Shown: positions 238 through 39,637 of the stretch, one piece after another
Numbering within the stretch: position 1 is the first letter of the stretch
How the letters are laid out: every line of letters starts with the position of its first letter
Assembly (NCBI GenBank): GCA_963827285.1
Contig: CAWHAG010000001.1
Span: forward strand, 51,821-115,820
Direction: 5' to 3'
DNA from: Ignavibacteriota bacterium
Lineage (GTDB): Bacteria > Bacteroidota > Ignavibacteria > CAWHAG01
Length of the DNA stretch: 64,000 nucleotides
The notes under the pieces: model-generated
The model's input: the letters and a program-made list of their open reading frames with translations, nothing else
The model's database searches: none
Told to the model about the DNA's origin: nothing
Made by a program: the position numbers and the translations under genes

Positions 238-698
238 ACACTTAACTCCTACCCATTAGGATATGTAAACGCCCAACATTGTCTATATTGATCCGCATAA
301 TACCCCAAATACTGTTCCATGTGCCGTATAAAGCACCTTTGATAACAGAGGCAATTCGGTCGCAAGCAATGACATGTCAGATCGTTGCAGGTAGTCGCTG
401 TTTTTATTATGGTGTTTTATATGGATCGGCATAATTCCCCCTGCTCTGCCATTCGCTCGTGCAACCATTGTCAGAAAGTCATTACCGGGAAAGAGAAGAG
501 TCTGGGAACAGCCACACGATAATTTACAGAATAGTCGCTACATAGTCAAGACAATTTCTGGAAGTTTAGTGAAGTGCGAAACACTAAACCGAATCGGACT
601 TGTCATTCTCCGTTTTTATGGCTATATTTGCACACAGGAGTTTCAAAAGATAGGATACCACGCACATTCTGGATAGTTAGTTGGAAATTCACGTGATA

Positions 699-3600
699 AT
701 GAAAAGAACAACAGCCCTTGCAATCGCAATATTCTGGACATTGCTGACACTTGCATTTCAGGACTTTGCACAAGAAGCTGCCCCACAAAAGAAGGCGCTT
801 GTCCTCTTTGATGGAAAGGATATTCCCACCAACCTTGCGCGTGGCGATGGAAGACAACTGGCTCAACTGCTTGGACATTTTTCTCTTTCCATCACTGTGC
901 AAGGAGTCGCCGATTATAGGAGCGGTGAACTTCAGGATTTCGATGTCATTTTCTTCATCGGCTTCGGAAGACATTATGATCCGCCAGATAAGTTTCTGAA
1001 GGATGTGTATCACTCAGACAAAACGATATGCTGGCTTAATACCGGCATTCAATATTTCGATAAGACGTTTGATCTAAGCAAGCGCTACGGGTTCAAGTTC
1101 GTCAGTTTCGACACCGCCACAAATTTCAATGTGGTCAAAGTCAAGGATTGGCGTTTTCCCAAAGGTGACGTCAACACGAACATAATCACCGTGACGAATG
1201 GTGCACACTGTCAGGTGATTGCTACGACTATCAACACGAAGAAGCAGGAAGTTCCCTATCTGGTACAGAGCGGCAATTTCTGGTACTTCGCAGACTCGCC
1301 GCTCTCGATGGTGACAGAAAATGACCGATACATCTTCTTTGCCGATATTCTGCACGATATCGTTGGAGAACAACATGCTGAAAGCCACACTGCCTTGATT
1401 CGGATTGAGGACGTGGATCCATTTGAAGAGCCAGGGCGCTTGCGCGATATCGCCGATCTTCTGTCTGAAGAGGGCATTCCCTTTTCAGTTTCATTGATCC
1501 CATTTTTTGTTGATCCCGCCAACAATATCCGCGTCAGCCTGTCAGACAAACCAGATTTTGTAGATGCAATTCATTATATGGTCGAACGCGGTGCGACGAT
1601 TGTTCTTCATGGCGGCACCCATCAATATAAAGGTCAAACCGCGACTGACTTTGAATTCTGGGATGGGACCACCAACAGACCGATCAGAAATGATTCAAAA
1701 GAGAATGTGGAGAAGAAATTGCAGATGGGGATCGAGGAGTGTATGCGAAATGGGATCTATCCGTTGATATGGGAAACGCCGCACTACACCGCATCGAGTC
1801 TGGATTACTCCGTCATCAGCAAGTTCTTCAGTAGCTGTATGGAGCAGCGACTTGCCATTGACAATTTTGACTATTCACAGAGTTTTCCCTTCATCATCTA
1901 TCATGATCTTTATGGACAGCGAATCTATCCTGAGAATTTAGGATACGTCCCGCTCGATGAAGACAAGAACAAGGAGCTAGAGAACGTTGATCGCCTCCTG
2001 CAAGCGGCTCAGCAAAACCTGTACCTTCGGGATGGATTTGCATCAGCCTTCTTCCACTCCTTTGTCGGTTTGGAGGCATTGAGAAAGCTTGTTGACGGTG
2101 TAAGGGCACTCGGATATACCTATAAAGATCTAAAGCAGGATGCCCACACCGTCAGACTCCTTGACAAAGTCATCGTGTCGGGGAATGGAGACATCAGTCT
2201 CCGGCTTGAGGATCAATATGTGCGGGAGATTCTGCTTGATGAGATAGGGACCATCCGTGAGGATCACACCTCACCGGATCGCATCAACACTGAGTACAAG
2301 AAACATGTGGAGGTAGAGTCAGGATGGATGTATGTCGCGGAGCCAAGCGAGTTCAAGCATCGCGACATCAGTTTCGGAGAGCGATTGCGTTACGATGTGC
2401 GGAATCTTTGGCAGAAGATCTTCCCCCCAAAGAAAGTTCGTGAGGAGGCGAAAGTGCTTTTCGTTCTCGATACCACAGCGCGTGGCGGAGGACGTAATGA
2501 CCAGCGCAGCTTCATCTCTGCGTTTCGTTCACTCAACATCAAGGTTGATACTACCTTTCCCGGACAGCATCTCGAGTTGGACAACTACAACCTCCTTATC
2601 GTGCCTTATGAAGCCGTGGACGATCTTCCGGATTCAGCATTTGATGCAGTTGTGAACTTTGTAGAGGATGGAGGAAACCTCATTACAGACGGTAAGAACG
2701 AAGTTGCCCAGGAACTTGGTATGAAGTTCACTACCACCTCCATTCGTGTCGAAGGCATTATTGACAGACTCTTTCCGGAAGAACAGATTCGTTGGCGCGA
2801 ACCTGAAGCGATGTACAAGTTCGATGTCGAATCAAATGATGAGGTCATCTGTCTTGACGAACGGACACAGACACCGGTGGTCATCGGCAGGAACTATGGA
2901 GATGGCAAGATTCTCTTCTTAGGCACACGCTTCGACCCTGTTAGCGATGCTGGCTACAGCCGATACCCGTACCTCCTCGAGTACGTGCAGAAGTACTTTC
3001 ACCTCTACCCGATTGTGAGGAGTGACAATATTGAAATCTATTTTGATCCGGGTTTGCGAAAAATCAGCGTTGAGGATCTTGTCAAATCTTGGCGCGAGCA
3101 TGGCGTGCGAATCGTCCATGTAGCTGGGTGGCATACGTATCCCACCTGGACGTATGATTATGGCAAACTGATCGATCTCTGCCATGCCAATGGGATGCTA
3201 GTGTATGCATGGCTCGAACCGCCACAGGTCACGAAGATGTTTTGGGATCGTCATCACGAATGGAGGGAGAGGAACTACTTGGGACAGGATACGATCTACT
3301 CAAGCTGGCGGTATCCTGTCGCTCTTACTGATTCTGCATGCTTGAGAACAGTGTTGGATGAATTCACAATCTTCCTAGACAAGTATGATTGGGATGGAGT
3401 GAACCTGGCGGAACTCTATTTTGAATCAGGCAGCAAAGGTCCCGCCGACGCAAAGCATCTCACACCGATGCACCCCTCCGCACGAAATGATTTCAAGAAG
3501 AAGTATGGGTTCGATCCTGTCCAACTCTTTGATCAGAACTCTACATATTACTGGAAGGATAATCCAGCAGCGTGGAAAGAGTTCGAGGATTATCGTGTCG

Positions 3601-4313
3601 GACTGATAGTGTATCTGCACGATAAGTTCTTGGCGCGGCTAAGTGAGATTGAGAACAGAAAAGAGGGATTTCATATTATCGTCACGGCGATGGATAACCT
3701 TACCGTCCCGGAGCTTCAACGGAATCTTGGTGTAGATGTTCTCAAGATTATTGAACTCAAGAACAAATATCAGTTCACTCTTCAGGTAGAAGATCCTCTC
3801 AGCCTTTGGTCCACCGACCCACGACGATACCTTGCCATTCGGAATAGGTACAAAGCGGTTGCAGGCGCGGGAGCAGACCTAATGCTTGATTTAAACATCC
3901 TTTCATTTCGAGGAGAATCCAAAACGATCTTTCCAACTTCGATTCAAACGGGAATCGAATGTTATCAACTGATCAATGTGGTTTCATCAGCAGCGGAGCG
4001 ATTTGCAGTCTATTCGGAAGCCACTGTGAATCCCCAAGATTTCAAGCTGATGCCGTTTGCGGCATCAGCGCAAGTGAAAGTAAATCGGATGGATGGAGGA
4101 TGGGAAGTGGAATCGCCGCGCTCATTCACACTGAACATCGGTGAAGAGTATCACACGATTCTGATAGACGGTCAGAAGCATCTCAGTCGAAGGGGAGGCA
4201 TTTTCCTTATCCCAAGCGGAAGGCACTTGATCAAGGTAAGTGCCGAAGGTCCTTTCTCGATGGAGGAAGCTTGGAGCGAAGATTCTCAGCATCACCGGCA
4301 ACCTGCTGTATGA
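699..4313 (+). CDS. Giant secreted exopolysaccharide-modifying protein: DUF2334 (polysaccharide-deacetylase-like) domain plus glycoside-hydrolase-like TIM-barrel region; the frame breaks near the 3' end
   Basis: This is the 1210-aa ORF, with an ATG at 699 giving the signal-like N-terminus MKRTTALAIAIFWTLLTLAFQ. The segment ALIRIEDVDPFEEPGRLRDIADLLSEEGIPFSVSLIPFF...IVLHGGTHQY matches my memory of DUF2334. The region VRIVHVAGWHTYPTWTYDYGKLIDLCHANGMLVYAWLEPPQV...DWDGVNLAELYFES looks like a GH-like TIM barrel (inference). It sits next to a GT2 synthase. Confidence 0.6.
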   Translation: MKRTTALAIAIFWTLLTLAFQDFAQEAAPQKKALVLFDGKDIPTNLARGDGRQLAQLLGHFSLSITVQGVADYRSGELQDFDVIFFIGFGRHYDPPDKFLKDVYHSDKTICWLNTGIQYFDKTFDLSKRYGFKFVSFDTATNFNVVKVKDWRFPKGDVNTNIITVTNGAHCQVIATTINTKKQEVPYLVQSGNFWYFADSPLSMVTENDRYIFFADILHDIVGEQHAESHTALIRIEDVDPFEEPGRLRDIADLLSEEGIPFSVSLIPFFVDPANNIRVSLSDKPDFVDAIHYMVERGATIVLHGGTHQYKGQTATDFEFWDGTTNRPIRNDSKENVEKKLQMGIEECMRNGIYPLIWETPHYTASSLDYSVISKFFSSCMEQRLAIDNFDYSQSFPFIIYHDLYGQRIYPENLGYVPLDEDKNKELENVDRLLQAAQQNLYLRDGFASAFFHSFVGLEALRKLVDGVRALGYTYKDLKQDAHTVRLLDKVIVSGNGDISLRLEDQYVREILLDEIGTIREDHTSPDRINTEYKKHVEVESGWMYVAEPSEFKHRDISFGERLRYDVRNLWQKIFPPKKVREEAKVLFVLDTTARGGGRNDQRSFISAFRSLNIKVDTTFPGQHLELDNYNLLIVPYEAVDDLPDSAFDAVVNFVEDGGNLITDGKNEVAQELGMKFTTTSIRVEGIIDRLFPEEQIRWREPEAMYKFDVESNDEVICLDERTQTPVVIGRNYGDGKILFLGTRFDPVSDAGYSRYPYLLEYVQKYFHLYPIVRSDNIEIYFDPGLRKISVEDLVKSWREHGVRIVHVAGWHTYPTWTYDYGKLIDLCHANGMLVYAWLEPPQVTKMFWDRHHEWRERNYLGQDTIYSSWRYPVALTDSACLRTVLDEFTIFLDKYDWDGVNLAELYFESGSKGPADAKHLTPMHPSARNDFKKKYGFDPVQLFDQNSTYYWKDNPAAWKEFEDYRVGLIVYLHDKFLARLSEIENRKEGFHIIVTAMDNLTVPELQRNLGVDVLKIIELKNKYQFTLQVEDPLSLWSTDPRRYLAIRNRYKAVAGAGADLMLDLNILSFRGESKTIFPTSIQTGIECYQLINVVSSAAERFAVYSEATVNPQDFKLMPFAASAQVKVNRMDGGWEVESPRSFTLNIGEEYHTILIDGQKHLSRRGGIFLIPSGRHLIKVSAEGPFSMEEAWSEDSQHHRQPAV

Positions 4314-4632
4314 ATATGACAGCGCCACGAATATTGAGTTTGGCTATTCATCGGTTCCGCGATGTGTCATCACACTGAACAAAGCACCTCTCGCAGTGAT
4401 CATTGACGGCAAACCATACGCGCCGAAGGTTTTGAAGGGAAACGAACATTACGGTGTCATTCTACCTTCAGGGGAACACAAAGTATTGGTGGTGCTGGAG
4501 AGCCAAATTGCATACAGCGTTGATCTCACCAGTCTGTGGTCATCTTCCATCATCGTGTTCTTCGGACTGATTTCCGGAGGAATGTTGATAGCGTTCTATG
4601 TGATGGTGAGGATACGCAGAAGCGAGAAGTGA
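4240..4632 (+). CDS. Out-of-frame C-terminal continuation of the preceding protein (beta-sandwich-like repeat plus C-terminal transmembrane anchor)
   Basis: This +1-frame ORF overlaps the end of 699..4313 by 74 nt. Its ILPSGEHKVLVVLES echoes LIPSGRHLIKVSAE just upstream in the other frame. It ends in a hydrophobic helix and basic tail, LWSSSIIVFFGLISGGMLIAFYVMVRIRRSEK. A stop at 4237 in its frame confines the shift to 4240..4313. Confidence 0.45.
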   Translation: MPKVLSRWRKLGAKILSITGNLLYEYDSATNIEFGYSSVPRCVITLNKAPLAVIIDGKPYAPKVLKGNEHYGVILPSGEHKVLVVLESQIAYSVDLTSLWSSSIIVFFGLISGGMLIAFYVMVRIRRSEK

Positions 4633-4660
4633 ATCAAAGGATTTGGGATCATCCACATTT

Positions 4661-4876
4661 GGACAGCCGAGGAGGGCTGTCCTGCCGATTCAATGTCGGT
4701 AGGACAGAACTCCTGTTCTGTGCCATCCCGTTTGTCCATGTGAGGACAGTTGAAGACGGCTGTCCTACCGATTGAATGTCGGTAGGACAGAACTCCTGTT
4801 CTGTCCACGTCTGGACAGTCAAGGACGACTGTCCTACCAATTTGTTGTTCGGTAGGATAGAACTCCCGTTCTGTCC
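4661..4876. repeat. Three tandem 63-64-nt units (4661-4723, 4744-4806, 4813-4876) built from interlocking GGACAG/CTGTCC hairpin arms
   Basis: Unit consensus: GGACAG-N10-CTGTCCTRCC-N11/12-GGTAGGAYAG-AACTCCYGTT-CTGTSC. The units lie between the EPS protein fragment and the GT2 gene. Confidence 0.85.
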
Positions 4877-4912
4877 AGGTGCAGTGCATTCTACTTTATA
4901 GACACAAAACGC

Positions 4913-6223
4913 ATGTTTGAACTGATCCTGCATATCTTCTTCGTCATCGCAGTCATCCTGATCTGGTTCATGATTGCCTACCAGTTAGTTCTTACCGCAG
5001 CAGGCTATTTTCATTATCAACGATCTCGCAAGGAGAAGAAGACCATTGACGGCACCTCATTTCAGTTTCCCAAAGTCTCCGTCCTGATTCCCGCCCACAA
5101 CGAAGATAAGGTTATTGGAAAAACCCTAACTGCAATGCTGGAGTTCGATTATCCTCACAACAAACTTGAAGTCATTATCATCAACGATGGTTCGTCTGAT
5201 GGGACGGCGGAAATTGTTTCAGAGATTGCCGCCTCTGATCCACGTGTGCGTTTGATGAACGTTCCGCGTGGTGAAGGTGGACGGGGGAAGTCGAGAGCCT
5301 TAAATCTTGGCTTGCGGTGGGTGACATCGGAGTATGTTGCCATCTTCGACGCTGACAATACTCCTGAGCCATCATCCTTGAAGTATTTAGTTGCCGAACT
5401 TATGTTGCATGAAGAGTTGGGCGCGGTGCTTGGCAAGTTTAGAACCGTTAACCGCAGCAGGAATCTTCTGACACGCTTCATCAGCACGGAGACGCTCAGC
5501 TTTCAGGGAATTCTCCAAGCGGGACGGTGGAAATTGATGCGAGTCGCCACCTTACCGGGTACAAACTTCGTTATCCGAAAGCATCTGTTAGACAAACTTG
5601 GTGGGTGGGATGAAAACGCCATTACGGAAGATTCTGAACTCAGTATCAGAATCTACATGGAAGGATACAAGATCAAGTACATCCCGTATGCCATCACTTG
5701 GGAGCAAGAACCGGAGAGTTGGAAAGTGTGGATTGGGCAGCGAACACGCTGGGTGCGGGGGAATAACTATGTTGTAGCAAAGTTCTTCAAAGAGATCCCG
5801 TTCTTCAAAAGCAAGCGCATGGCAATAGAGATTTTATATTTTCTTTCGCTCTACTATGTTTTCCTCGTTGCCATCGTGTTGTCTGATATCCTCTTCATCC
5901 TTGGTGCTCTCGATCTAATCGTCATCAAGGTTCCCGGTCCTTACACCGCAGTCTGGATGTTGGCATTGGTATTGTTTTTCTGGGAAATCGTGTTGGTCCT
6001 GTCCTACGATCGAGAGGACAGACTTCCGGCAATCCTGCTCATCATTCTGATGTATTTCACGTACTGTCAACTCTGGATCTACATCGTCGGTCGGTCACTG
6101 TACCTTGACATCATCAAGCGGGAGAAACGCACCTGGCTGAAGACGATACGATTTGATACCGCCGATACGCCTGCCGTTTTGAAAGCAACAACCGATTCGG
6201 ATCAATCCGCGAAGCCGCTTTGA
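4913..6223 (+). CDS. Processive family-2 glycosyltransferase (PgaC/IcaA-like polysaccharide synthase)
   Basis: N-terminal TM helix, VSVLIPAHNED, IIINDGSSDGT, FDADN (DxD), QRTRWVRGN (QxxRW) and C-terminal TM helices. Confidence 0.85.
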   Translation: MFELILHIFFVIAVILIWFMIAYQLVLTAAGYFHYQRSRKEKKTIDGTSFQFPKVSVLIPAHNEDKVIGKTLTAMLEFDYPHNKLEVIIINDGSSDGTAEIVSEIAASDPRVRLMNVPRGEGGRGKSRALNLGLRWVTSEYVAIFDADNTPEPSSLKYLVAELMLHEELGAVLGKFRTVNRSRNLLTRFISTETLSFQGILQAGRWKLMRVATLPGTNFVIRKHLLDKLGGWDENAITEDSELSIRIYMEGYKIKYIPYAITWEQEPESWKVWIGQRTRWVRGNNYVVAKFFKEIPFFKSKRMAIEILYFLSLYYVFLVAIVLSDILFILGALDLIVIKVPGPYTAVWMLALVLFFWEIVLVLSYDREDRLPAILLIILMYFTYCQLWIYIVGRSLYLDIIKREKRTWLKTIRFDTADTPAVLKATTDSDQSAKPL

Positions 6224-6237
6224 CCCAGACAAAGTTG

Positions 6238-6279
6238 GAAGCCAGAAGCCAGAAGTCAGAACTGGGAATTCGGAACAGT
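6238..6279. repeat. GAA-phased heptanucleotide tandem array (6 units)
   Basis: gaagcca gaagcca gaagtca gaactgg gaattcg gaacagt, starting 15 nt after the GT2 stop. Confidence 0.6.
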
Positions 6280-7069
6280 GTGGCGAAAGAACATTTGCTG
6301 ACCTCTCTCTCCCAGCTTCTGTAATTTTGTCCGCTAAATCTTTGTTCAAAACTACGGATTGCTCCATTCCTCAAGAAAAAACCTCCTCTCCTGTTTCCCC
6401 ATCCATCGTAACATCTCATTACGTTTTAGCAAGAATTCGTAAAGAACCATTACACCTGTCACCTTCTGACCTCGAAGAGGATTTCGAGAAGTCAAAAATC
6501 TCAGAGTACCCGTCTCCGATAACCCGTTGGAATTCCACCACGTTACATTGGATTGCCAAGCCCGCGGGTCTTCATGGCATAGTTGTTGAACCTATTCAAG
6601 CTGAACAAGTTGTGCTTGGTTCAGTTCAGCCAAGATGAACTTATCACTCCAAGCTTTTCATGTTCGCCTCCAGGAGGGAAGCCGCACAAACCACAAGCAA
6701 TTGATCCTGAGCTTGCTTCAGGATTGAAGATGGCGTGAGGGAAGGATGAACAGTCTATAAGAGTTTGGGCACGCACTTTAAGAGGTGTGCAAGGACACCG
6801 TCTCGAGCAGAACCAGGATTCTGTTTGGATGAACTCTTGAAAACGAAGGCAAGATAGAAAGTCTCTGCACACCACTGCCCTTCACTCAATTTCGTGCTTA
6901 TCACCTTTGTTCATCTACTTCTCCTTGTCCATCTTCCGCCTCAGATCAAAGCACGCTTAATTCACTTTCTTCCACGTTTCGTTCAAGTTCCATTTTTTTG
7001 TACACAGGTTAACTGTTCCTGCTGTCACTGAGGGTCGGCACCAGGAGATCCCGCTCTAGACTAACGTGA

Positions 7070-7100
7070 GTGCCTTTGGCACCATGGCGCCTGGCGCCAT
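7070..7100. promoter_or_regulatory. Paired palindromes GTGCC-ttt-GGCAC (7070-7082) and ATGGCGCC-t-GGCGCCAT (7084-7100); candidate regulator-binding site
   Basis: A perfect 17-bp palindrome and a 13-bp inverted repeat lie about 250 bp upstream of the first lipoprotein gene. More GGCACC/GGCACA motifs occur at about 7037 and 7122. Confidence 0.25.
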
Positions 7101-7350
7101 TTGTCTGGAGAACAACGGAGGCACAGTCTCCTGTGCCGCCCTCTATCTTGCCTGGATCGCAGATTGGGTCAGCCTCTATCCACAATCTGAATACTGATAG
7201 GGGATCAAGGGGGCAGGGGGGGGTTCATCTACCGGTGAACAACCAAATAGGCAAGAGATACATACTGGGCAAATGCATCCTTATGTTTATGTGCCATCAA
7301 ATCACGGAAGATTCATTACAAACAATTTCAACTACACAAGGAGATCAAAA

Positions 7351-7881
7351 ATGCGTAACCTAAAATTACTTTCGCTGTCTCTCTTTTTTATACTGACAGC
7401 GTTCATTGTTGGCTGTTCGAGTGACAATACTCCGCCAGCTTCCACAGAGATGGAGGTGCAACCGGGCATTACGTGTCTCAACCCACCAGCGAATCCATAT
7501 CCTTCGCAGAAGTCGGTTGTCCAACTCGTCACTTCCAACTGGGGTGGAGTTGTCGGTGGACTGCTGACATTTGGAAATTTCGTCACGATACCGCCGGGCG
7601 CTTTGCCATGGAACACCTACATCACTGTCACAGCATTGGCGTACCAAAAGGACGTGTACTTCGGTCCCGACATGAAGTTTCGTAAGAACGTGACGATCAC
7701 ACTATCGTACAGGTATTTCTCTTATGTGAGCGATTACCAGGCGAAGAAGATGAAGATATACTGGTATGATCCGCTGCAGATGAAATGGGTCATTTTCAAC
7801 GCCACGCCGATCATTGATACTGTGCAGAAGACATTTACTTTCGAAACGAACCATTTCTCCCGTTATGCCTGGGGAGAGTAG
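7351..7881 (+). CDS. Lipoprotein, ZU5-like domain, paralogue 1
   Basis: AAGGAG sits 6 nt upstream of the ATG at 7351. Lipobox FIVGC. Shared core GGVVGGLLTFGNFVTIPPGALPWNTYITVTA...YFGPDMKFRKNVTITLSY...KIYWYDP...KWV...KTFTFETNHFSRYAWGE. Confidence 0.75.
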   Translation: MRNLKLLSLSLFFILTAFIVGCSSDNTPPASTEMEVQPGITCLNPPANPYPSQKSVVQLVTSNWGGVVGGLLTFGNFVTIPPGALPWNTYITVTALAYQKDVYFGPDMKFRKNVTITLSYRYFSYVSDYQAKKMKIYWYDPLQMKWVIFNATPIIDTVQKTFTFETNHFSRYAWGE

Positions 7882-7950
7882 TACGGAACAAATTCCAGAC
7901 ACTGGATAAACAAATCAACCTATGTCAAACATTAAAATATGGAGAACCTG

Positions 7951-8481
7951 ATGAAAAAACTAATCAATCACAAACTATCAATTACGTTCTTCGCTTTGAT
8001 CGCCGTCATGTTGTTCGTAGTTGGCTGTTCGGATAACAGCGTTGTCAACCCAGAGCAACAGAAGAAAGGTCCGACATTCTTCACGCGAATCAGCGCTCTG
8101 CACAAAGACCCAGTGACAGTTGGGGCATGGATTGGACCGAGCGGTGGAACAGTTGGAGGCTCTGAGACTTATGGTAACAGTATCAGTGTTCCGGCGGGCG
8201 CAGTAGCTCAGAACACCTACTTTACGGTCGCTGTAACAAATCCATCCGTTTCTATCGCGGAATTTGGACCAGGTGGGCAATTCAATCAAGATATTACCGT
8301 GACCTTCTCGTATGATGGCTTCAATGTCACGAGTCCGTCGTCAATCAAGGTATACTGGGAAAATCCTGACACGGGATGGGAACTTGTCACGGATTCGCCA
8401 GGAGTTGATACTAACGCAAAGACTGTGACATTTTCAACGGGCCATTTCTCGAAGTACGGCATTGGTGATGATGGAGGATAG
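7951..8481 (+). CDS. Lipoprotein, ZU5-like domain, paralogue 2
   Basis: GGAG lies upstream of the ATG at 7951. Lipobox FVVGC. Core GGTVGGSETYGNSISVPAGAVAQNTYFTVAV...FGPGGQFNQDITVTFSY...KVYWENPDTGWE...KTVTFSTGHFSKYGIGDDGG. Confidence 0.75.
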   Translation: MKKLINHKLSITFFALIAVMLFVVGCSDNSVVNPEQQKKGPTFFTRISALHKDPVTVGAWIGPSGGTVGGSETYGNSISVPAGAVAQNTYFTVAVTNPSVSIAEFGPGGQFNQDITVTFSYDGFNVTSPSSIKVYWENPDTGWELVTDSPGVDTNAKTVTFSTGHFSKYGIGDDGG

Positions 8482-8598
8482 TGATCGGTGATTCATAATG
8501 GACGTGGTATTGCCGCGGCGAACCGTACGCGTCGTAGGCTAAACATCGGCGTATTTTGCCAGACATATTCTACAAAACACAAGAAAAGAGGAAATCCA

Positions 8599-9195
8599 AT
8601 GAATCACAACTCGGTTTTGTGTCGAATTCTGCTACCATGTTTGGTGGTTGTTCCTCTAGCATTGTTGGTTCTTGGCTGTGCACAAGACAACCCCGTTCAG
8701 CCAAACAGTCAACAGAGCATTAACTCACCGCCGCCCGGGGTCACATTCCAACGCTGGAATACCGGCTACCTTGAAACAGAATATGCCAAGATCAAAAACT
8801 CTTCCTCCTATCGTGTAGAGGATGGTGAACTGGGCTATGCCGAGAGAGATGTCAAACCCAATCAGCAAGCAAAAATTGGAGGAAGTAACACACTGGGGAA
8901 TCTTGTTCAAATCCCTGCAGGAGCAGTGGGCACGACAACCACGATTACAGTGGCGGTGAGTAATCCAGGATTTGCTGCAGTGGATTTTGGTCCCACGATG
9001 CAGTTCAACCAATCTGTCACGGTCACTCTGTCCTATGCAGGGACAACTGTTGACCCGACAAAGATCAAGATTTACTGGTGGGACCCGAATGCTAATGACT
9101 GGGTGATGATTAGCGATCATCCAAGTATTAACTTCGATAAGCAAACTGTGTCATTTCCGACGGATCATTTCTCTCGCTATGCTTGGGGAGAGTAG
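8599..9195 (+). CDS. Lipoprotein, ZU5-like domain, paralogue 3
   Basis: AGAGGA lies upstream of the ATG at 8599. Lipobox LVLGC. Core IGGSNTLGNLVQIPAGAVGTTTTITVAV...FGPTMQFNQSVTVTLSY...KIYWWDPNANDWV...QTVSFPTDHFSRYAWGE. Confidence 0.75.
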   Translation: MNHNSVLCRILLPCLVVVPLALLVLGCAQDNPVQPNSQQSINSPPPGVTFQRWNTGYLETEYAKIKNSSSYRVEDGELGYAERDVKPNQQAKIGGSNTLGNLVQIPAGAVGTTTTITVAVSNPGFAAVDFGPTMQFNQSVTVTLSYAGTTVDPTKIKIYWWDPNANDWVMISDHPSINFDKQTVSFPTDHFSRYAWGE

Positions 9196-9517
9196 CAGAA
9201 AGTGGAATCAAACACATTGGGTTCGGCAAATTGCAATAATCAATCCGAATTGTCATATTGAACCTAAGGCTTATCATAAGCCTGTGGCTGAGAAGCAAAC
9301 GGGAAAAGGCATTCTGCTGGTCCCACTGCTCTACCGTATGTGCAGAGTGAATAAGAAAAACACTTGAATATAAACAAGAAATTCATATATTAACTGCAGG
9401 TCGAAACCGCTGGTTTCTCCTCCTGCTCATGGAGAAAGAGACTCATGGATCCTCTGCGATTTAAGACGTTTGTAGTGGAACTGCTTAAAATCTCCGAGCG
9501 GTATTGCGGCAAGCGTT

Positions 9518-10678
9518 TTGTTCGAAACCTTTCGCGGCTTGATCAGAAGACAGAAGGCGAAAGAACAATACCTTCTTCGGAAAATGAAACAAGGGCTACA
9601 GGTTCAGCCGAGTGACATCAGTTATCAGAATACGATCTTTGATATCTTCTGTGCAATGTATGAGAGGCATCTTGAGACGGACGAATACCTGAGGATGTCG
9701 CTAGAGGTGGGAAAAATCTCAGTGAAGTACGGTGAGTTCTCCAAGGCAACGATGATGTATCGGAGGGTTGCACAGCGAGCACCAAAGAACCACGTGCTGC
9801 ACGCGGAGGCACTGCTTCGAGAAGGGGATTTGCAGACGAAACAGAGCAAGTTCAAGGAGGCGCACCACTCACTCAAGAAATCGAAGGAAGTGTATGAGCG
9901 ACTCCGGAGCAACTCCGGCTGCGCGCAGGTGGAAAACAAATTAGCTGTGAACTACTGCGAACAGGGAAGACTCAGTTTGGGGGAGCGTCATTTTGCAGTT
10001 GCTATGGAAGGTGCTGAGCGAGCACGCAACTATGGATTGGCTAGTGGCGTAGCGATCAATGAAGGAAATGTGTCCAGCATCCGTGGAAAATGGGCGAACG
10101 CGCTTGCGAAATATCAAGAGGTCCGGCCTCACTTAGAGAGGCGAGGGGATGCAAAACGTTTGGCGCTAACCTGTCACAACCTTGGCTTGACCGTAATGCG
10201 TCAAGGCAAATATCAGGTTGCGGTCTCATATTTTGATAAGAGCTTGCACTTCCTAAGGAAGCTAAGCGACTATTATCTAACGGGGTTGGTTTATCTTGGA
10301 AAAGCCGAGGCGTATGTGTCAATGCGGGACTATATGCTTGCTGCTGGTTACGCTGGAAAAGCGCTGGAAATGTTCAATCGAGTCGGTGATAGGTTGAGTA
10401 TAGCAGATGCGTACAAGGTCAAGGGAATGATTCACCGTGAGATGAAGGAATGGGACGTGGCTGAATTATATTTCCAGTCGAGTTTGAAAATCAACGAAGA
10501 GGTAGGAAATGCGTTGAACACGGCAGAGACTTACTATGAGCTAGGAGTGTTACATAAGCTGATAGGGAGTCGTGGGAAAGCAGAGGAGAGTTTCCAGCGC
10601 GCCATAGAGCACTATGAAAAGATCCGGGCTCGGCAAGCGATCGAAAAAGTCCAGCATGAAATGCGAATCGAAGCCTAG
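9518..10678 (+). CDS. Cytoplasmic all-TPR protein, paralogue A (start uncertain; TTG at 9518)
   Basis: 386-aa ORF with no signal peptide and repeated TPR-type helices. It aligns over its full length with the next gene. Confidence 0.7.
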   Translation: MFETFRGLIRRQKAKEQYLLRKMKQGLQVQPSDISYQNTIFDIFCAMYERHLETDEYLRMSLEVGKISVKYGEFSKATMMYRRVAQRAPKNHVLHAEALLREGDLQTKQSKFKEAHHSLKKSKEVYERLRSNSGCAQVENKLAVNYCEQGRLSLGERHFAVAMEGAERARNYGLASGVAINEGNVSSIRGKWANALAKYQEVRPHLERRGDAKRLALTCHNLGLTVMRQGKYQVAVSYFDKSLHFLRKLSDYYLTGLVYLGKAEAYVSMRDYMLAAGYAGKALEMFNRVGDRLSIADAYKVKGMIHREMKEWDVAELYFQSSLKINEEVGNALNTAETYYELGVLHKLIGSRGKAEESFQRAIEHYEKIRARQAIEKVQHEMRIEA

Positions 10679-10694
10679 AAGTCTGGTCGAAAAA

Positions 10695-10716
10695 CCCCTC
10701 ATCGCTACCTGAGGGG
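10695..10716 (+). terminator. Hairpin CCCCTCA-N8-TGAGGGG after TPR gene A (weak T tract)
   Basis: A 7-bp GC-rich stem 17 nt after the stop, followed only by TT. An A5 run on the 5' side would give a T tract on the other strand. Confidence 0.3.
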
Positions 10717-10905
10717 TTGAGGGAATCAAGTGGACTTTTCGGCTGCGTCCCTGGCACTCGAGTTCATTCCAATTATCATTTCAAGAGAACGCTATGGAAG
10801 ATCTGAAATTGAATCCATTTATAGAAGAAACTCCTGAACATCGCCGCTCGATATCACGGGAGCAAGTTCGTTCGAAGTTTTCACAGAAAGTTGAAAAGCC
10901 GTATC

Positions 10906-12042
10906 ATGGTGTCGGAACGCGCTCTCCGCAAGCGACGAAAAGCACTTCAGCCGAAAGGGGGACTTGGAGAGAAGGAGGTTGACACAGAAACAGCATTTAC
11001 AGTTTTCCTCCATTTATATGAAGCGGGTCTAGGCGTTCATGAGAACCTTCAGTTATCAATAGAAATCGGCAAGGTCGCGATTCGATATGGTGAGTATGAC
11101 AAGGCGGTGAATATTTTTCGTGCCACTGCAAGGAAGGCGAGGCGGTTCAATGTCGCTTCAGTGTTAGCAAAAGTACTTTTTAATGAAGCAGAGGTGTGCC
11201 ACTATCGCGAGCAATGGAAGCAGCGTACCGTACTTCTGAAACGTGCATTTACGATATACGATCATCTGCACGACACCATTGGGAAGGCGTCAGTTCGGAT
11301 GTGCATAGGGAACACTGCCACCGAGCTGGGAAGGTTGAAAGTCGCCGAGAAGTGTTACTTGCAAGCGTTGCCCACGGCGGAGCAAGCGAAGAACGCTCTT
11401 CTCTCAGCATTGGTTAATAATAATCTCGGCAATGTATGGTCTATGCGGGGTGACTGGGAAAAAGCCCTTGGATGTTATCAGCGATCAATCGTGGATAGTG
11501 AACAGCATGGTAGTATTCGGGTGTTGACGATGACCTACGGCAATCTCGGATTGATCTTCATGCGGCAGGGGGACTACCGAAAAGCGCTGACGTATTATGA
11601 GAGGGGTCTTCGATATGCAAGCAAATTCGAAGACGTATATAATAAGGGCAACGCCTTTGTTGGGATTGCAGAGCTGTATTTTCATCTCTCCGATTTCGCG
11701 CTCTCATCTGCTTATGCCACCAACGCCCTTGCTATCTATTATAAGATGGACAATAGGTCAGGAATCGCGGAATGTTATAAAGTGAAAGGGATGATTGAGC
11801 GAGAACTGAAGAACTGGGAAACAGCCGAATCATATTTCCGGACCGGATTACAGCTGAATCAAGAAGTGGGAAACATCTTGAATGTGGGCGAGATTTTCTA
11901 CGAACTTGCAGTACTGCATCAGCGTCTTGCGAAAGAGGAGGCAAAGCGTGATCTGCGCTTGGCGCTAAGCCATTTTCGCAAGGTGGGGGCAAAGAAGAAT
12001 ATTGAGAAGACCCAGCAGGCATTGAAGACGTGGTTTGCGTAA
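10906..12042 (+). CDS. Cytoplasmic all-TPR protein, paralogue B
   Basis: ATG at 10906 (the ORF track starts at a TTG at 10891). It aligns with paralogue A, for example IAECYKVKGMIERELKNWETAESYFRTGLQLNQEVGNILN versus IADAYKVKGMIHREMKEWDVAELYFQSSLKINEEVGNALN. Confidence 0.7.
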   Translation: MVSERALRKRRKALQPKGGLGEKEVDTETAFTVFLHLYEAGLGVHENLQLSIEIGKVAIRYGEYDKAVNIFRATARKARRFNVASVLAKVLFNEAEVCHYREQWKQRTVLLKRAFTIYDHLHDTIGKASVRMCIGNTATELGRLKVAEKCYLQALPTAEQAKNALLSALVNNNLGNVWSMRGDWEKALGCYQRSIVDSEQHGSIRVLTMTYGNLGLIFMRQGDYRKALTYYERGLRYASKFEDVYNKGNAFVGIAELYFHLSDFALSSAYATNALAIYYKMDNRSGIAECYKVKGMIERELKNWETAESYFRTGLQLNQEVGNILNVGEIFYELAVLHQRLAKEEAKRDLRLALSHFRKVGAKKNIEKTQQALKTWFA

Positions 12043-12157
12043 GCATATGCCTGAATCTTGGTTCAGGTTTCAGTAGCAGCAGTCGCATCAACTTCCGGTT
12101 TCAGTCTCAGCAAGATGATTTAGCCACAGGATGCGAGTGTGATAGAAGGACGCATTC

Positions 12158-13567
12158 ATGACCTATAGAATCGCCGTCACATCGAGCAAGCAAAGCTTTG
12201 CGAAAGTCCGAAGGTTCCTCCCTGGGATCGGCGAACAAATAGCCCTCGAATATATTGAAAACCCATCTCGCTTGCTCGTAAGCCGAGACCATCTATTGAC
12301 CCCCAACTTGTTCATTTATGAGATCAATCAGAGTCCGGGGAAAGCCGTTGATTTAGTTGCTGAGTTGGTGCAACGGAAACAACTTGCCGTAATGGTAATG
12401 ACCGCCAAACCCGACTGGAAGACCGCCCGCGACTTTGCGAAGTTGGGTGTCACCAACTACTTTCACCTGCCCGATGATATCCATCAACTGGTTGATGCGG
12501 TAGAGTTCATGATGAGCGAGTGGAGTGCCCAGCAGCAGGCTGTGGACATGCTGGAATTCCAGAGAGATTCCTATGGTTTTGACAAAGTGATCACCCAGTC
12601 TCCCATTGTGATGGAGGCAATCGAGAAAGCCCGAACAGCAGGTAAGCAAGATAGCCTTCCCGTTCTCCTCTGCGGAGAACCTGGTGCGGGGAAGGAGTTT
12701 CTTGCTAAAGTGATCCACTACAACAGTGCCCGCTGTGAAGAACCCTTTGTGGATATTACGTGTTCTGGTATTCCGGAAATCACTCTTGAGGCAGAGTTAT
12801 TCGGCTACGAGAGGGGAGCGTTCCATGAAGCACGCGAGGCGCGAAGAGGACTGCTAGAGATTACTGGTAGAGGAACGATTTTTCTCGATGAGATTAGCAG
12901 TCTTAGCCTTTACCTACAGGCAAAACTGCTGAAGGCCATCAAACAGAAGCGATTCCGCCGTGTTGGTGGTGCCAGAGAGTATTTCACGGATGTTCGGATC
13001 ATCGCAGCAACCGATGCAGACTTAGATGCGAGAGTTGCGGCAGGTAAATTCAGTAGCGGGCTTTATTTTCAACTCAATGTGATGAGGATTGACCTACCCA
13101 GTCTCGATAAACGAGGGGAAGACATTCCGCTTCTGACGGACTTCTTTATTCAGTCTTTCAATGAATTACACGGTAAGGCGATCGCGGAGATCGCCCAACC
13201 CGCAAGGGATATGCTGCTTCAACATGACTGGACTGGGAACGTTAAAGAACTGCGCCACGCGATTGAACGAGCGGTGATTCTAGCAAAAGAGAATGTGCTT
13301 CAGCCGCACGATTTCCAGTTCCTCTTCGATCGCACATTGACACAGGCAGTGCAGGAAAAACCGGAGGAAGAAGTACCACCAGGAGGAGATGTGATCACGT
13401 TACAGATCCCGTTGGAGCGTGGCTCCTTGGACAAGGTAGAGAAGCAGTTTGTCGAAGAGGTGTTAAGGATGAACGAGTGGAACAAGTCCAGGGCTGCGGG
13501 ATTGTTGAAGATCTCCCGACCGAAATTGGATCGGATGATTCACAAGTTTCAGATAGCTGAACCGTGA
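12158..13567 (+). CDS. NtrC-family AAA+ transcriptional regulator with a pseudo-receiver domain and a degenerate GAFTGA loop (GAFHEA)
   Basis: Walker A GEPGAGKEF, Walker B IFLDEI, R-finger region, C-terminal Fis-type HTH NKSRAAGLLKISRPKLDRMI. The N-terminal ~120 aa are receiver-like but lack the acidic pocket and have Glu at the phospho-Asp position (LFIYEINQS). Confidence 0.85.
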   Translation: MTYRIAVTSSKQSFAKVRRFLPGIGEQIALEYIENPSRLLVSRDHLLTPNLFIYEINQSPGKAVDLVAELVQRKQLAVMVMTAKPDWKTARDFAKLGVTNYFHLPDDIHQLVDAVEFMMSEWSAQQQAVDMLEFQRDSYGFDKVITQSPIVMEAIEKARTAGKQDSLPVLLCGEPGAGKEFLAKVIHYNSARCEEPFVDITCSGIPEITLEAELFGYERGAFHEAREARRGLLEITGRGTIFLDEISSLSLYLQAKLLKAIKQKRFRRVGGAREYFTDVRIIAATDADLDARVAAGKFSSGLYFQLNVMRIDLPSLDKRGEDIPLLTDFFIQSFNELHGKAIAEIAQPARDMLLQHDWTGNVKELRHAIERAVILAKENVLQPHDFQFLFDRTLTQAVQEKPEEEVPPGGDVITLQIPLERGSLDKVEKQFVEEVLRMNEWNKSRAAGLLKISRPKLDRMIHKFQIAEP

Positions 13568-13610: not shown

Positions 13611-15596
13611 TTATCCAGTCCTAATCATCCTCTCCAATTCCTTCGTAAGTTCATCCCATCTGTAGTATTCATCGGCAAGCTCTGTCTCCAGTGTCTCATA
13701 TTTAGCAGTTATCTCCTTCACTCGGTCGCCAACTTTGTAGAAGTTTGGATCCGCCATCAGTTGTTCGATTTCTCTCTTCACCAACTCCTTCGCCTCTATA
13801 GATCGTTCCATCTTTTCGATTTGCTGCCGGATCGGTTTCATCTTCTCATATTTCCTCTGCCGCTGCTCAGCCTCGATGCGCTTTCGATCTCTCTCGGTGA
13901 GTTGAGGCTTCTCCACTCGCAGAGCCACCGATGACCTACCTTCTGGAGTACCATCAACGCGAAGTCGAGTCATTTTGTCCTGATGGAGCTGCTCCTTCTG
14001 CTTTGTGTAAATGTAGTCACTGATGTTGCCGACGTAGGTCTTGAGATTCCCCTGCCTGAATTCGATGACCTTGTTTACAATGGGATCGAGAAAATCACGG
14101 TCGTGTGAAACAATGACATAGGTTCCTTCAAATCTCCGTAACGCTTCCTGTAGCACCTCCTTTGATCGTACATCAAGGTGGTTCGTCGGTTCATCCATGA
14201 CGATGAAATTGCAGGGCTGGAGAAGCATCTTTGCCAGTGCAAGGCGACTCTTTTCTCCCCCTGAGAGGACACCGACTTTCTTGAAGACATCATCGCCGCA
14301 AAACAGGAAACATCCGAGCAGGTTGCGCAAGTGTCTACGGATCTCGCCAGTTGCCACCTCATCCACCGTTTGCAGAACGTCTTTCTCCGGGTCTAATTCC
14401 TCAGTCCGGTCTTGTGCGAAATACGAAATTACGACGTTGTAACCAACTCTACGGTCGCCGGCGTCAAGAGGCTCAATGCCAGCAATGATTCTCGAAAGCG
14501 TGGACTTGCCTGCGCCGTTGACGCCGACAAAGGCAATCCTGTCGCCCCGTTCAATATCAAGATTAGTTCCGCTAAAGATTCTGTTTGGACCATAACTCTT
14601 GTGGAGAGCTAACAGTTGCAGGACCATCTGACCGCTGGGAGGCACTGGAGGGAACTGAAAGTGGATTTCTCCTTCTTCATCTTCAATCTCTATCCGCTCA
14701 ATCTTCTCAAGTTGTTTAATACGGCTTTGTACCTGACGTGCCTTTGTTGCTTTGTAACGGAACCGCTCAATGAACTGCTCAGTCTGTCTAATCCGTTGCT
14801 GCTGGTTCTTGAACGCAGCAAGCTGCAGTCTCTTTCGTTCTTCCTTCGATTTCAGATAGTAGCTGTAGTTGCCTACGTATGCGGTAAGATTGCCGAGACT
14901 CAGCTCCCAAGTCTTTGCGGTCATGTTATCGAGAAAGCGACGGTCGTGGGAAACGATCATCACCGCACCTTCGTACGAACGCAGGTATTCCTCCAGCCAC
15001 TGCAAAGAGTCCAGGTCAAGGTGATTCGTGGGTTCGTCCAGCAACAGGAGTGAAGGTTGAATCAAGAGAAGTTTGGCAAGAGCGATGCGCATTTGCCATC
15101 CGCCACTGAACTCGTCCGTCAAGCGATCCATGTCTCGTTCAGAGAACCCAAGCCCGGAGAGAACTCTCTCGATCTTTGATTTCACTTGGAACGCATCGAG
15201 GTCTTCAAACCGGTGCTGCAATTCGCCGTAGAGTTCCAGAAGGTCCTGAAACTCCTCCGTCTCATGATTGACTTCTCTCATACGCTGATGAATCTCTTGG
15301 AGTCTGGTTTGCACATCGAGAGTATCCCGAAAGGCGGTCTCGACCTCCTTATACAGAGTGATTCCAGTGGTGTAGGTTCCTTCTTGTGGAAGATAGCCGA
15401 CAGTTACGAACTTCGCCTTGGCAACCTCTCCCTTCTCAACCGATGCTTCGCCAGCCAGAACCCTCAGCAGTGTGGATTTCCCTGCCCCGTTCGCTCCGAC
15501 GAGTCCGATGCGATCATGCGAACCGATATGGAATGAAATGTCTTTGAAGAGATATCTTCCACCGAATTGAAGCGATATATTGTTGACTAAGATCAC
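13611..15596 (-). CDS. ABC-F family ATPase (Uup/YbiT-like; tandem ABC domains plus C-terminal coiled coil)
   Basis: Two Walker A motifs (GANGAGKST, GVNGAGKST), two signature motifs (LSGGWQMR, LSGGEKSR), no TM domain, and a charged coiled-coil tail. GTG start. Confidence 0.9.
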   Translation of the reverse strand: MILVNNISLQFGGRYLFKDISFHIGSHDRIGLVGANGAGKSTLLRVLAGEASVEKGEVAKAKFVTVGYLPQEGTYTTGITLYKEVETAFRDTLDVQTRLQEIHQRMREVNHETEEFQDLLELYGELQHRFEDLDAFQVKSKIERVLSGLGFSERDMDRLTDEFSGGWQMRIALAKLLLIQPSLLLLDEPTNHLDLDSLQWLEEYLRSYEGAVMIVSHDRRFLDNMTAKTWELSLGNLTAYVGNYSYYLKSKEERKRLQLAAFKNQQQRIRQTEQFIERFRYKATKARQVQSRIKQLEKIERIEIEDEEGEIHFQFPPVPPSGQMVLQLLALHKSYGPNRIFSGTNLDIERGDRIAFVGVNGAGKSTLSRIIAGIEPLDAGDRRVGYNVVISYFAQDRTEELDPEKDVLQTVDEVATGEIRRHLRNLLGCFLFCGDDVFKKVGVLSGGEKSRLALAKMLLQPCNFIVMDEPTNHLDVRSKEVLQEALRRFEGTYVIVSHDRDFLDPIVNKVIEFRQGNLKTYVGNISDYIYTKQKEQLHQDKMTRLRVDGTPEGRSSVALRVEKPQLTERDRKRIEAEQRQRKYEKMKPIRQQIEKMERSIEAKELVKREIEQLMADPNFYKVGDRVKEITAKYETLETELADEYYRWDELTKELERMIRTG

Positions 15597-39046: not shown

Positions 39047-39637
39047 ATGAACAATTCCGATCAAGCGAAGTCATTGCACGTACTCGGCATCTCCGGTAGC
39101 TTGCGCAAGGGTTCTTACAACACAGCAGCGTTGCGGGCGGCGGCTGAGTTAGCACCTCCTCGAATGACGATTGAGATTTTTGACCTATCATCCATTCCAC
39201 TATTTAATGCCGATTTATGGATTGCGGGTTTCCCGGAGCCTGTCCAACATTTTCGTGATCGCATTGCTGCCGCAGATGCGCTACTGATCGCAACACCAGA
39301 ATACAACTACTCAGTCCCCGGCGTACTCAAGAATGCAATTGACTGGGCATCGCGTTCACCAGACCCACCGCTTAGTGGCAAACCGCTTGCAATCATGGGT
39401 GCCACGACGGGCAACTGGGGGACCGTGCGTGCACAACTGCATCTGCGCCAAGTATGTGTCTTTACGAACATGCTGCCGTTAAATCAGCCAGAGGTGCTTA
39501 TCGCTCGTGCACAGGAGAAGTTTGATGTAAGTGGTCATCTCACCGACGAACTAACACGGGATTTCATCCGGAAGCTCCTCGAGGCACTAGCAGATTGGAC
39601 GCTAAGACTTCGTGGAACCAAGAAAGACTCTTTATAA
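39047..39637 (+). CDS. NADPH-dependent FMN reductase family protein
   Basis: VLGISGSLRKGSYNTAALRAA and ATPEYNYSVPGVLKNAIDWASR. Confidence 0.85.
   Translation: MNNSDQAKSLHVLGISGSLRKGSYNTAALRAAAELAPPRMTIEIFDLSSIPLFNADLWIAGFPEPVQHFRDRIAAADALLIATPEYNYSVPGVLKNAIDWASRSPDPPLSGKPLAIMGATTGNWGTVRAQLHLRQVCVFTNMLPLNQPEVLIARAQEKFDVSGHLTDELTRDFIRKLLEALADWTLRLRGTKKDSL

Follow-up and report, generated by a model that had tools for sequence, protein, structure and literature searches.

A ZU5-like lipoprotein, TPR and degenerate NtrC-type regulator locus in an Ignavibacteriota bacterium appears to be a reduced form of a conserved signalling cassette

Six adjacent plus-strand genes of an Ignavibacteriota bacterium (assembly GCA_963827285.1, contig CAWHAG010000001.1) appear, from gene content and synteny, to be the local and reduced form of a conserved, larger signalling cassette. 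The stretch of DNA analysed as a whole, here called the window, covers 64,000 nt (positions 51,821-115,820 of the forward strand), and the six co-directional open reading frames (ORFs) occupy positions 7351-13567 of it. They encode three lipoproteins, two tetratricopeptide repeat (TPR) proteins and one NtrC-type enhancer-binding protein (EBP). This is the 3+2+1 set of the original prediction, an earlier annotation of the same DNA, and it was recovered at the positions given there. The upstream border is a 1.1-kb interval (6224-7350) without a convincing gene. The best explanation of the whole, which we offer tentatively, is a reduced signalling cassette with self-cleaving lipoproteins, a peptide-reading TPR protein and a rewired EBP. 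Direct support exists for the anatomy, homology, synteny, predicted promoters, motif loss and purifying selection.

The proposal that the six genes form a functional module is borne out by a gene-neighbourhood comparison, in which homologues are syntenic across phyla. Related loci from genomes and metagenome contigs carry L-numbers below, and members of the lipoprotein family carry P-numbers. A genome scan with a narrower lipoprotein alignment yielded 4 genome loci, and a metagenome search with the TPR alignment yielded 32. Of the metagenome loci, 27 extend far enough ahead of the TPR gene to be judged, and in at least 25 of these the gene immediately before it encodes a ZU5-type lipoprotein. 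L002, L004, L006 and L008-L011 show this order too. Downstream of the gene for lipoprotein P0004 (34% identical), a gene for a TPR protein of 412 aa sharing the N-terminal motif comes first and one for a hybrid histidine kinase second. The order in a Neomarinimicrobiota metagenome-assembled genome is histidine kinase, canonical receiver-EBP (GAFTNA), lipoprotein and TPR protein, and in Calditrichaceae two lipoproteins precede a STAND-ATPase-TPR protein and a TPR protein. The flanking genes differ in L008, where lipoprotein, TPR, TPR and degenerate EBP are kept. Some TPR-family homologues carry source names from Ignavibacteria and Bacteroidota.

A fuller cluster, with all genes co-directional, is present in at least 13 loci. 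It comprises an SBP_bac_5 binding protein with two Opp-type permeases (in L012 with oligo_HPY ATPases alongside), a Ser/Thr kinase-AAA_16-TPR (STAND) protein of ~1,230 aa, an EBP of ~477 aa with GAFTDA and a pseudo-receiver, one to four lipoproteins followed by a TPR protein (~415 aa), and a soluble GAF-HisKA-HATPase kinase. Pfam searches confirmed these domains, the oligo_HPY ATPases among them. The window locus has no Opp, Ser/Thr kinase or GAF kinase gene. Hydrophobic segments were found in none of the kinases, TPR proteins or regulators of the cluster, and only the lipoproteins are exported. With the signalling proteins soluble, the peptide importer is thus the sole encoded route across the membrane. 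Pfam, NCBIfam, PADLOC and the literature gave no specific match to a named system, in agreement with the original prediction, and a literature search found no paper describing this gene combination or pairing. The parts are of known kinds, while, as far as this search shows, their combination and the logic proposed for it are not.

The lipoproteins each combine a hydrophobic N-terminal segment with a lipobox cysteine and have a C-terminal domain of ~110 residues in common, at 34-43% identity (BLASTP E 1e-26 and 7e-26), as had been claimed for them. Lipoprotein 2 has an alternative start at 7939. The three lipoproteins of the window match no model in Pfam or NCBIfam. A first, word-indexed search returned 4 proteins only, and the resulting impression of a tiny family was overturned by an exhaustive profile search, which recovered 3,188 representative clusters, 215 of them at E <1e-10. 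Most members are 170-230 aa long and have a lipobox, and the domain closes the protein. The AlphaFold2 model of lipoprotein 3 has an overall predicted local distance difference test (pLDDT) score of 60, with values mostly of 70-85 in the domain and near 60 in two 10-residue blocks. In a Foldseek search of this model against the PDB, ranks 1-16 are all ZU5 domains (ankyrin, UNC5b) and GAIN domains come next. The best match is ankyrin 3f59, with E 1.3e-4, probability 1.00 and a template modelling (TM) score of 0.55 normalised to the target. The profile of the family matches the ankyrin-2 ZU5 domain in the PDB at E 5e-4. Pfam ZU5 (PF00791) is matched by 15 of 61 family members, with a best E of 6e-4 and none above the gathering score. 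Fold prediction and the H-F-S/T motif support assigning the domain to the ZU5 superfamily, and the sequence profiles point the same way, in Pfam below threshold. The label ZU5-like, already used in the original prediction, is adopted here.

The motif is nearly invariant. Of 122 short representatives, 120 have HFS or HFT and one has HLS, and H and F are invariant in the lipoprotein alignment A4. Among the short representatives the tail that follows measures 7-8 residues in 76 and 6-10 residues in 102, with the consensus [ST]-R-Y-[AG]-[WLI]-[GSA]-x. The HFS of the lipoprotein 3 model is placed in the turn separating the last two beta-strands (183-190 and 193-197). PIDD and Nup98 cleave at HFS by an N-O acyl shift, and CARD8 and NLRP1 cleave at the equivalent SFS, between F and the second S (PMC3210808, PMC4483485). 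Zhang et al. united the ZU5, GPS and Nup98 domains in one autopeptidase superfamily and described bacterial representatives of it from toxins and from surface proteins of large size (PMC3482391). We infer from this analogy that the lipoproteins may cleave themselves between HF and S/T. In a few module lipoproteins (L032 7945-8541 and 9140-9739, and L028 24-737) the motif reads HFC or HLS instead. A cysteine nucleophile in HFC would still permit an N-S acyl shift, in keeping with a catalytic rather than a purely structural position. The same domain with HF[S/T]xY is also found inside surface proteins of 660-2,250 aa (P0033, P0057, P0097, P0114 and P0124), some with C-termini that look SLH-like by eye. 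Cleavage there would split off a large C-terminal fragment.

The two TPR proteins align end to end with 36% identity (E 3e-80), and the earlier description of them as cytoplasmic all-TPR paralogues holds. Their stated length of ~385 aa does not, the intact forms having 410 and 415 aa and the window ORFs being frameshifted. Single-nucleotide insertions lie at ~9524 (relative to L001) and ~10828 (relative to L001, L044 and L046), both in short A/G-rich runs, and only relatives covering each site were used for this comparison. As a consequence the window ORFs seem to begin at internal TTG codons, with the intact starts at the ATGs of 9445 and 10794. We consider assembly indel errors likelier than pseudogenes for both frameshifts, and other window genes may have been hit by similar indels. 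The AlphaFold2 model of TPR protein 2 (pLDDT 89.8) is an all-helical, continuous TPR superhelix. Its fold neighbours include peptide binders of the groove type, namely LGN, APPBP2, RapF, NprR and phage Rap, the last three at TM scores of 0.60-0.63.

Divergence between close strains is distributed as a mosaic. Relative to L001 the locus is 96-100% identical except for lipoproteins 1 and 3 (70-85%), and relative to L044 it is 95-98% identical except for the 5' half of the gene for TPR protein 2 (70-78%; synonymous divergence, dS, of 0.51 against 0.09 in the adjacent EBP gene). The divergent intervals are 7199-7789, 8390-8986 and 10520-11497, a pattern that may reflect recombination, or diversifying selection acting on some members of the module.

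The regulator carries Sigma54_activat (PF00158, 6.8e-52), AAA_lid_14 and the Fis-type helix-turn-helix (HTH) domain HTH_8, according to Pfam. Response_reg reaches only E 0.079 and 13.6 bits against a cut-off of 30.2. In this receiver region the acidic DD pair is replaced by S9-S10, the phospho-Asp by E55 and the conserved Lys by Leu. The original prediction of an altered receiver phospho-site and sigma-54 contact loop is confirmed by E55 and GAFHEA, and the loss of both arginine fingers was found in addition. Walker A and Walker B are intact (GEPGAGKE, FLDEI). An orthologue in L008, 65% identical and from another metagenome, has the same receiver changes, and the other losses go deeper there (GALRDV; FNSGLYYQL, with N/Q at the finger positions). 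The nearest relatives, in L009 and L011 (36-38% identity), keep the arginine fingers and GAFTDA and have sigma-54 promoters adjoining, indicating that the loss is recent and lineage-specific. In bacterial EBPs such motif losses bar ATP hydrolysis in trans and the engagement of sigma-54. The window EBP is predicted from its motifs to be incapable of both, which would leave it to act only as a nucleotide-binding, DNA-binding and sigma-54-independent regulator. Variants of GAFTGA judged compatible with activation in a computational study keep Thr or Ser at position 4 (PMC4641369). The ratio of nonsynonymous to synonymous substitution rates (dN/dS) of the EBP gene is 0.18 relative to L044, a close strain, and 0.06 relative to L008, with 0.21 in the adjacent ABC-F gene. 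These low values indicate that the regulator is maintained by purifying selection. TPR protein 2 has a dN/dS of 0.14.

Predicted promoters set the canonical loci apart from the lineage of the window. When both strands of 913 kb of related loci were scanned, 18 sites had at most one mismatch to the sigma-54 consensus TGGCAC-N5-TTGCW. All 18 are on the module strand. Of these, ~13 precede a module gene for a lipoprotein or TPR protein by no more than ~250 bp, and one further site precedes such a gene by ~620 bp. Ten canonical loci have sigma-54 promoter matches with 0-2 mismatches. GAFTDA is among the loop variants rated as allowing sigma-54 activation in Desulfovibrio vulgaris (PMC4641369). Taken together, the sites and the GAFTDA loop suggest that the canonical operon is sigma-54-dependent, presumably via the adjacent EBP. 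In the window, L001 and L008, the DNA ahead of the lipoprotein genes contains no sigma-54 match with fewer than four mismatches that keeps the GG and GC cores. This absence is in keeping with the EBPs of these loci, which have lost residues for sigma-54 contact and for ATPase activity. Sigma-54 promoters in the window at large were rejected as candidates, with 33 matches at up to two mismatches against 32.8 expected by chance. The sole such match inside the module, at 10752 (TGGCAC-N5-TTCAT), is without the -12 GC. The window has just one site that departs from the consensus at no more than one position, TGGCAAACCGCTTGCA on the plus strand at 39376-39391, and it hints that the host may still use sigma-54 elsewhere. 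A sigma-70-like candidate is predicted ahead of the gene for TPR protein 1. Both of its hexamers are kept in L008, where the remaining intergenic sequence is not conserved, so the two TPR genes and the EBP gene may form a separate transcription unit in this lineage.

We suggest the following mechanism for the canonical cassette. The lipoprotein would cleave itself at H-F-S/T, before the S or T, with the C-terminal strand of 7-10 residues remaining non-covalently bound. Unfolding or degradation of the lipoprotein in the envelope or at the surface would then free this C-terminal peptide, which could be imported by an Opp-type importer and bound in the TPR groove. A peptide-bound TPR protein might alter the activity of a partner kinase or regulator and close an autoregulatory loop. 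In the lineage of the window, sigma-54 would have dropped out of the loop, the lipoproteins would have multiplied to three, carrying two types of tail, and the TPR gene would have been duplicated. The TPR proteins would there probably control the ATPase-dead EBP through its pseudo-receiver, and the EBP would regulate through its HTH domain. The bolder claim that some diderms, the relatives described here among them, possess a new class of peptide signalling, in which a C-terminal 7-10-mer is produced by ZU5 self-cleavage instead of a protease, stays hidden until the lipoprotein unfolds or is degraded, is imported by Opp, read by a TPR protein and drives sigma-54 transcription, is in our view unlikely. 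Its cleavage chemistry would be that of PIDD, NLRP1, Nup98 and the adhesion-GPCR tethered agonist.

Several points weigh against self-cleaving lipoproteins and a peptide-reading TPR protein. Cleavage, peptide release and import, peptide binding by the TPR protein and contact between TPR protein and EBP are all inferred steps. Known proteins of the ZU5, GAIN and FIIND types hold on tightly to the strand after cleavage, and their C-terminal fragment carries a functional domain and not seven residues. The tail may be conserved merely as a core beta-strand, and the quality of the AlphaFold2 lipoprotein model is only moderate. The best fold matches of the TPR protein are to eukaryotic LGN. The RNPP_C model (PF18768) reaches 22.5 bits on TPR protein 2 only, with a cut-off of 26.5, and RapF and RapJ, at E 1e-11 in the TPR profile search, rank below generic TPR proteins. 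Membership of the TPR proteins in RNPP is thus ruled out at the level of sequence, and their likeness to RNPP receptors appears generic. Opp genes are not nearby in the minimal loci (the window, L008, L004 and L002), and SBP_bac_5 transporters also carry nickel and other solutes. L008 has both TPR paralogues with a single lipoprotein (tail SKYGFGDP), which contradicts a pairing of one tail type with each TPR paralogue.

The simplest rival, possible and rated by us only slightly below the self-cleaving cassette, holds that the lipoproteins are regulated envelope or surface targets with structural, adhesive or binding roles and that the TPR protein, instead of receiving a peptide, serves the kinase or EBP as adaptor or scaffold. 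The HF[S/T] tail would then be a structural or maturation feature, and Opp another target or an unrelated nutritional cue. Sigma-54 promoters directly upstream of lipoprotein genes beside an EBP gene are an ordinary regulator-target arrangement, and the genes for the TPR protein and the GAF kinase overlap by 4 bp in many loci (L024 11122/11125), which suggests a TPR-kinase complex. The lack of Opp in the minimal loci and the generic TPR likeness fit this explanation as well. What it leaves unexplained is the near-invariance of H-F-S/T and the 7-8-residue tail across ~3,000 representative clusters, and the order of lipoprotein then TPR gene despite differing regulators (a hybrid kinase in L002, a STAND ATPase in L006, kinase and EBP in L004). 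Nor does it account for an importer heading a cluster in which the signalling proteins have no extracytoplasmic sensor. The self-cleaving cassette remains our preferred explanation.

The absent partners (Opp, Ser/Thr kinase and GAF kinase), the insertions in both TPR genes and the triple motif loss in the EBP could alternatively mean that the window copy is a decaying remnant no longer working as a unit. We consider this improbable. The low dN/dS ratios of the EBP and TPR protein 2 speak against decay, as do the full-length EBP ORF and the same motif losses in both the close strain and the L008 orthologue. The TPR frames are intact in three close strains, L044, L046 and L001, the last with coverage of the 5' part of the gene for TPR protein 2, and the window derives from a 1.63-Mb contig, which makes single-base indel errors a likely cause of the frameshifts. 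The promoter candidate and the conserved non-coding blocks are also retained. Least probable of all is a conflict or anti-phage role, towards which the original prediction leaned, with ZU5 protein, TPR sensors and NTPase acting as in NTP-dependent ternary systems. In its favour, ZU5 autopeptidases are known from apoptosis-like systems of bacteria and from polymorphic toxins (PMC3482391, PMC8195603), the full cluster and L006 encode a STAND-type AAA_16-TPR protein, and lipoproteins 1 and 3 and the 5' half of TPR protein 2 are hypervariable between strains. Against it, PADLOC matched TPR, protein kinase and the AAA+/HTH of RtcR-type regulators, all of them generically, and left the lipoproteins without a match. 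In none of the loci was an effector domain (nuclease, toxin or pore) found, the ZU5 proteins here are exported lipoproteins and not cytoplasmic adaptors, and the flanks hold housekeeping genes rather than a defence island. The conserved partners are two-component and other signal-transduction genes and peptide-import genes with sigma-54 promoters, and the leaning was abandoned.

Features of the lipoprotein, TPR and EBP locus and its borders (positions in the window)
Feature	Position	Strand	Details
Conserved non-coding block 1	6754-6885	+	84.5% identical to L008 over 129 nt; upstream of lipoprotein 1
Inverted repeat GCAGAA-N6-TTCTG(T/C)	6807-6824	+	within block 1; variable spacer
Perfect palindrome GGCACAG-TCTC-CTGTGCC	~7096-7113		just 5' of block 2; one difference in one arm in L008
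Conserved non-coding block 2 (weaker)	7117-7183	+	77% identical to L008 7017-7084
Lipoprotein 1	7351-7881	+	176 aa; signal peptide; lipobox IVGC; ZU5-like; HFS 168-170 (7852-7860); tail SRYAWGE
Lipoprotein 2	7951-8481	+	176 aa; lipobox VVGC; ZU5-like; HFS 165-167 (8443-8451); tail SKYGIGDDGG
Lipoprotein 3	8599-9195	+	198 aa; lipobox VLGC; ZU5-like; HFS 190-192 (9166-9174); tail SRYAWGE
Sigma-70-like promoter candidate	9364-9391	+	TTGAAT-N16-TATATT, ~55 nt upstream of the TPR protein 1 ATG; consensus match, prediction
TPR protein 1	9445-10678	+	intact form 410 aa; extra base near 9524; in-frame ORF 9518-10678
Hairpin CCCCTCA-N8-TGAGGGG	10695-10716	+	between the TPR genes; no U-run after it
TPR protein 2	10794-12042	+	intact form 415 aa; extra A near 10828; in-frame ORF 10891-12042
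Degenerate NtrC-type regulator (EBP)	12158-13567	+	469 aa; pseudo-receiver, AAA+ domain, HTH_8
GAFHEA loop of the EBP	12815-12832	+	replaces GAFTGA (alignment to Aquifex NtrC1)
FSSGLYFQL of the EBP	13049-13075	+	replaces FREDLYYRL; both arginine fingers gone
ABC-F gene	13611-15596		convergent with the six genes; Pfam ABC_tran, ABC_tran_Xtn

Two blocks of the non-coding DNA upstream of the lipoprotein genes are conserved more strongly than the adjacent genes. Both exceed the coding DNA of the locus (63-70%) in identity to L008, and the gene upstream of block 1 differs in L008. The two blocks are confined to this lineage. Block 1 has fold z-scores of -0.87 and +0.67, which are not significant, and a single compensatory pair among three sequences. 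Rfam searches in gathering mode on the whole window and in E-value mode on 6200-7400 gave nothing credible. A covariance model of block 1 (R1) found only the window, L001 and L008, and 538 kb of related loci yielded no additional copy. The blocks may be a regulator-binding or operator region or a leader RNA, and they are candidate operators for the EBP. GCAGAA-N6-TTCTG was rejected as a shared operator, its other good matches (4704, 4787 and 4857) belonging to an unrelated tandem palindromic repeat. The stem of the hairpin between the TPR genes is kept in L001 through compensatory changes (CCCTCC...GGAGGG) and is absent in L008, where the TPR genes are 38 bp apart.

Other parts of the window were inspected as well. 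At 4677-4877, ~3 tandem copies with a period of 69-83 nt each consist of a strong hairpin, CTGTCCTACCGA-N7-TCGGTAGGACAG, followed by the palindrome ACAGAAC-TCCT-GTTCTGT. This array, REP-like or regulatory, lies just upstream of a family-2 glycosyltransferase (GT2) gene (4913-6223). Together with a 1,210-aa DUF2334 (polysaccharide-deacetylase-like) protein, the glycosyltransferase resembles an exopolysaccharide synthesis pair (681-6223). The DUF2334 ORF seems to run on into an overlapping ORF (4240-4632), maybe through another frameshift. Further downstream are genes for a protein with lamin-tail, CARDB and a CHU_C type IX secretion signal (31084-33642) and for an Eco57I/MmeI-type fused restriction-modification enzyme (35734-38691). 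The type IX secretion signal is consistent with an origin in Bacteroidota and allied phyla (FCB group). A search of the window for tRNA and tmRNA genes found none.

The analysis places a lipoprotein family of ~3,000 representative clusters in the ZU5/Nup98/GAIN autoprocessing superfamily, as far as profile and predicted fold can tell. It also links the family with one particular TPR partner and with a conserved cluster of sigma-54, kinase and peptide-importer genes. A testable hypothesis follows for envelope or mutual sensing in lineages that have been little studied, namely Marinimicrobia, Calditrichia and probably Ignavibacteria/Bacteroidota. The family might also offer a simple bacterial system for studying HFS self-cleavage between F and S. 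The window EBP would be a clean natural example of an enhancer-binding protein turning ATPase-dead and sigma-54-independent, with the -24/-12 promoter element lost in parallel.

Among known systems, PrsK-PrsR-PrsT resembles the module in joining EBP, histidine kinase and TPR protein with exported proteins that share a C-terminal motif (PMC1569441). The PrsR model TIGR02915 scores 248 bits on the window EBP against a cut-off of 503, a match at family level only. A PEP-CTERM/PrsKRT reading was rejected, since the module tails of 7-10 residues are without the PEP motif, transmembrane helix and basic cluster of PEP-CTERM proteins. The module TPR protein is cytoplasmic, whereas PrsT is a lipoprotein, and no exosortase gene lies near the module, unlike the PrsKRT set. 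NlpE-Cpx and RcsF-Rcs are lipoprotein envelope sensors that signal to membrane-spanning kinases. They have in common with the module an exported lipoprotein genetically tied to a two-component or transcriptional pathway. The kinases and regulators of the module are all soluble, unlike theirs, and the proteins show no sequence or fold relation. For the regulator, the closest parallels are the sigma-54-independent members of the bacterial EBP family, TyrR, HupR and Rhodobacter capsulatus NtrC. These have the AAA+ Sigma54_activat fold, a Fis-type HTH and an altered or absent GAFTGA, as does the window EBP, and by this likeness it would be expected to regulate without remodelling sigma-54. It differs from them in having lost the two arginine fingers and the acid pocket of the receiver as well.

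The lipoprotein domain shares its predicted beta-sandwich fold with ZU5/FIIND (PIDD, NLRP1, CARD8, UNC5CL), Nup98 and GAIN/GPS proteins, and, as in PIDD, Nup98 and GAIN-type proteins, the cleavage-motif turn precedes the last beta-strand. The SKYG that follows HF in lipoprotein 2 is presumably identical to the human Nup98 site. Unlike in known ZU5 proteins, the domain makes up the entire mature small exported lipoprotein, with only 7-10 residues past the site, and, unlike established members, the family matches Pfam ZU5 below threshold only. The bacterial ZU5 domains described so far come from large RHS toxins and surface proteins (PMC3482391).

The RNPP systems (Rap-Phr, NprR-NprX, PlcR-PapR) resemble the module in the overall arrangement. 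Both have an exported protein with a conserved short C-terminal segment, in the module a precursor-like lipoprotein, together with a cytoplasmic TPR protein of ~400 aa encoded beside it and an Opp-type importer, which is co-clustered in the canonical loci (at least 13) and has no counterpart in the window locus. In both, the TPR protein has links to proteins that carry receiver domains or act in transcription, and the fold likeness already noted extends to RapF, NprR and phage Rap. The putative module precursor is a folded lipoprotein of 170-230 aa with a putative self-cleavage motif, whereas RNPP precursors are pro-peptides of 40-60 aa cut by secreted proteases. RNPP systems occur in Firmicutes and the module in diderm organisms of the Gram-negative type. 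Unlike RNPP receptors, the module TPR protein is without an HTH, and no Rap-type N-terminal domain was identified in it. The output also differs, running in the module through sigma-54/EBP and histidine-kinase signalling. If the proposed peptide signalling were true, the module would be a Gram-negative analogue of RNPP quorum sensing and would foreshadow, in bacteria, the "cleaved but tethered ligand" logic known from animal ZU5/GAIN proteins.

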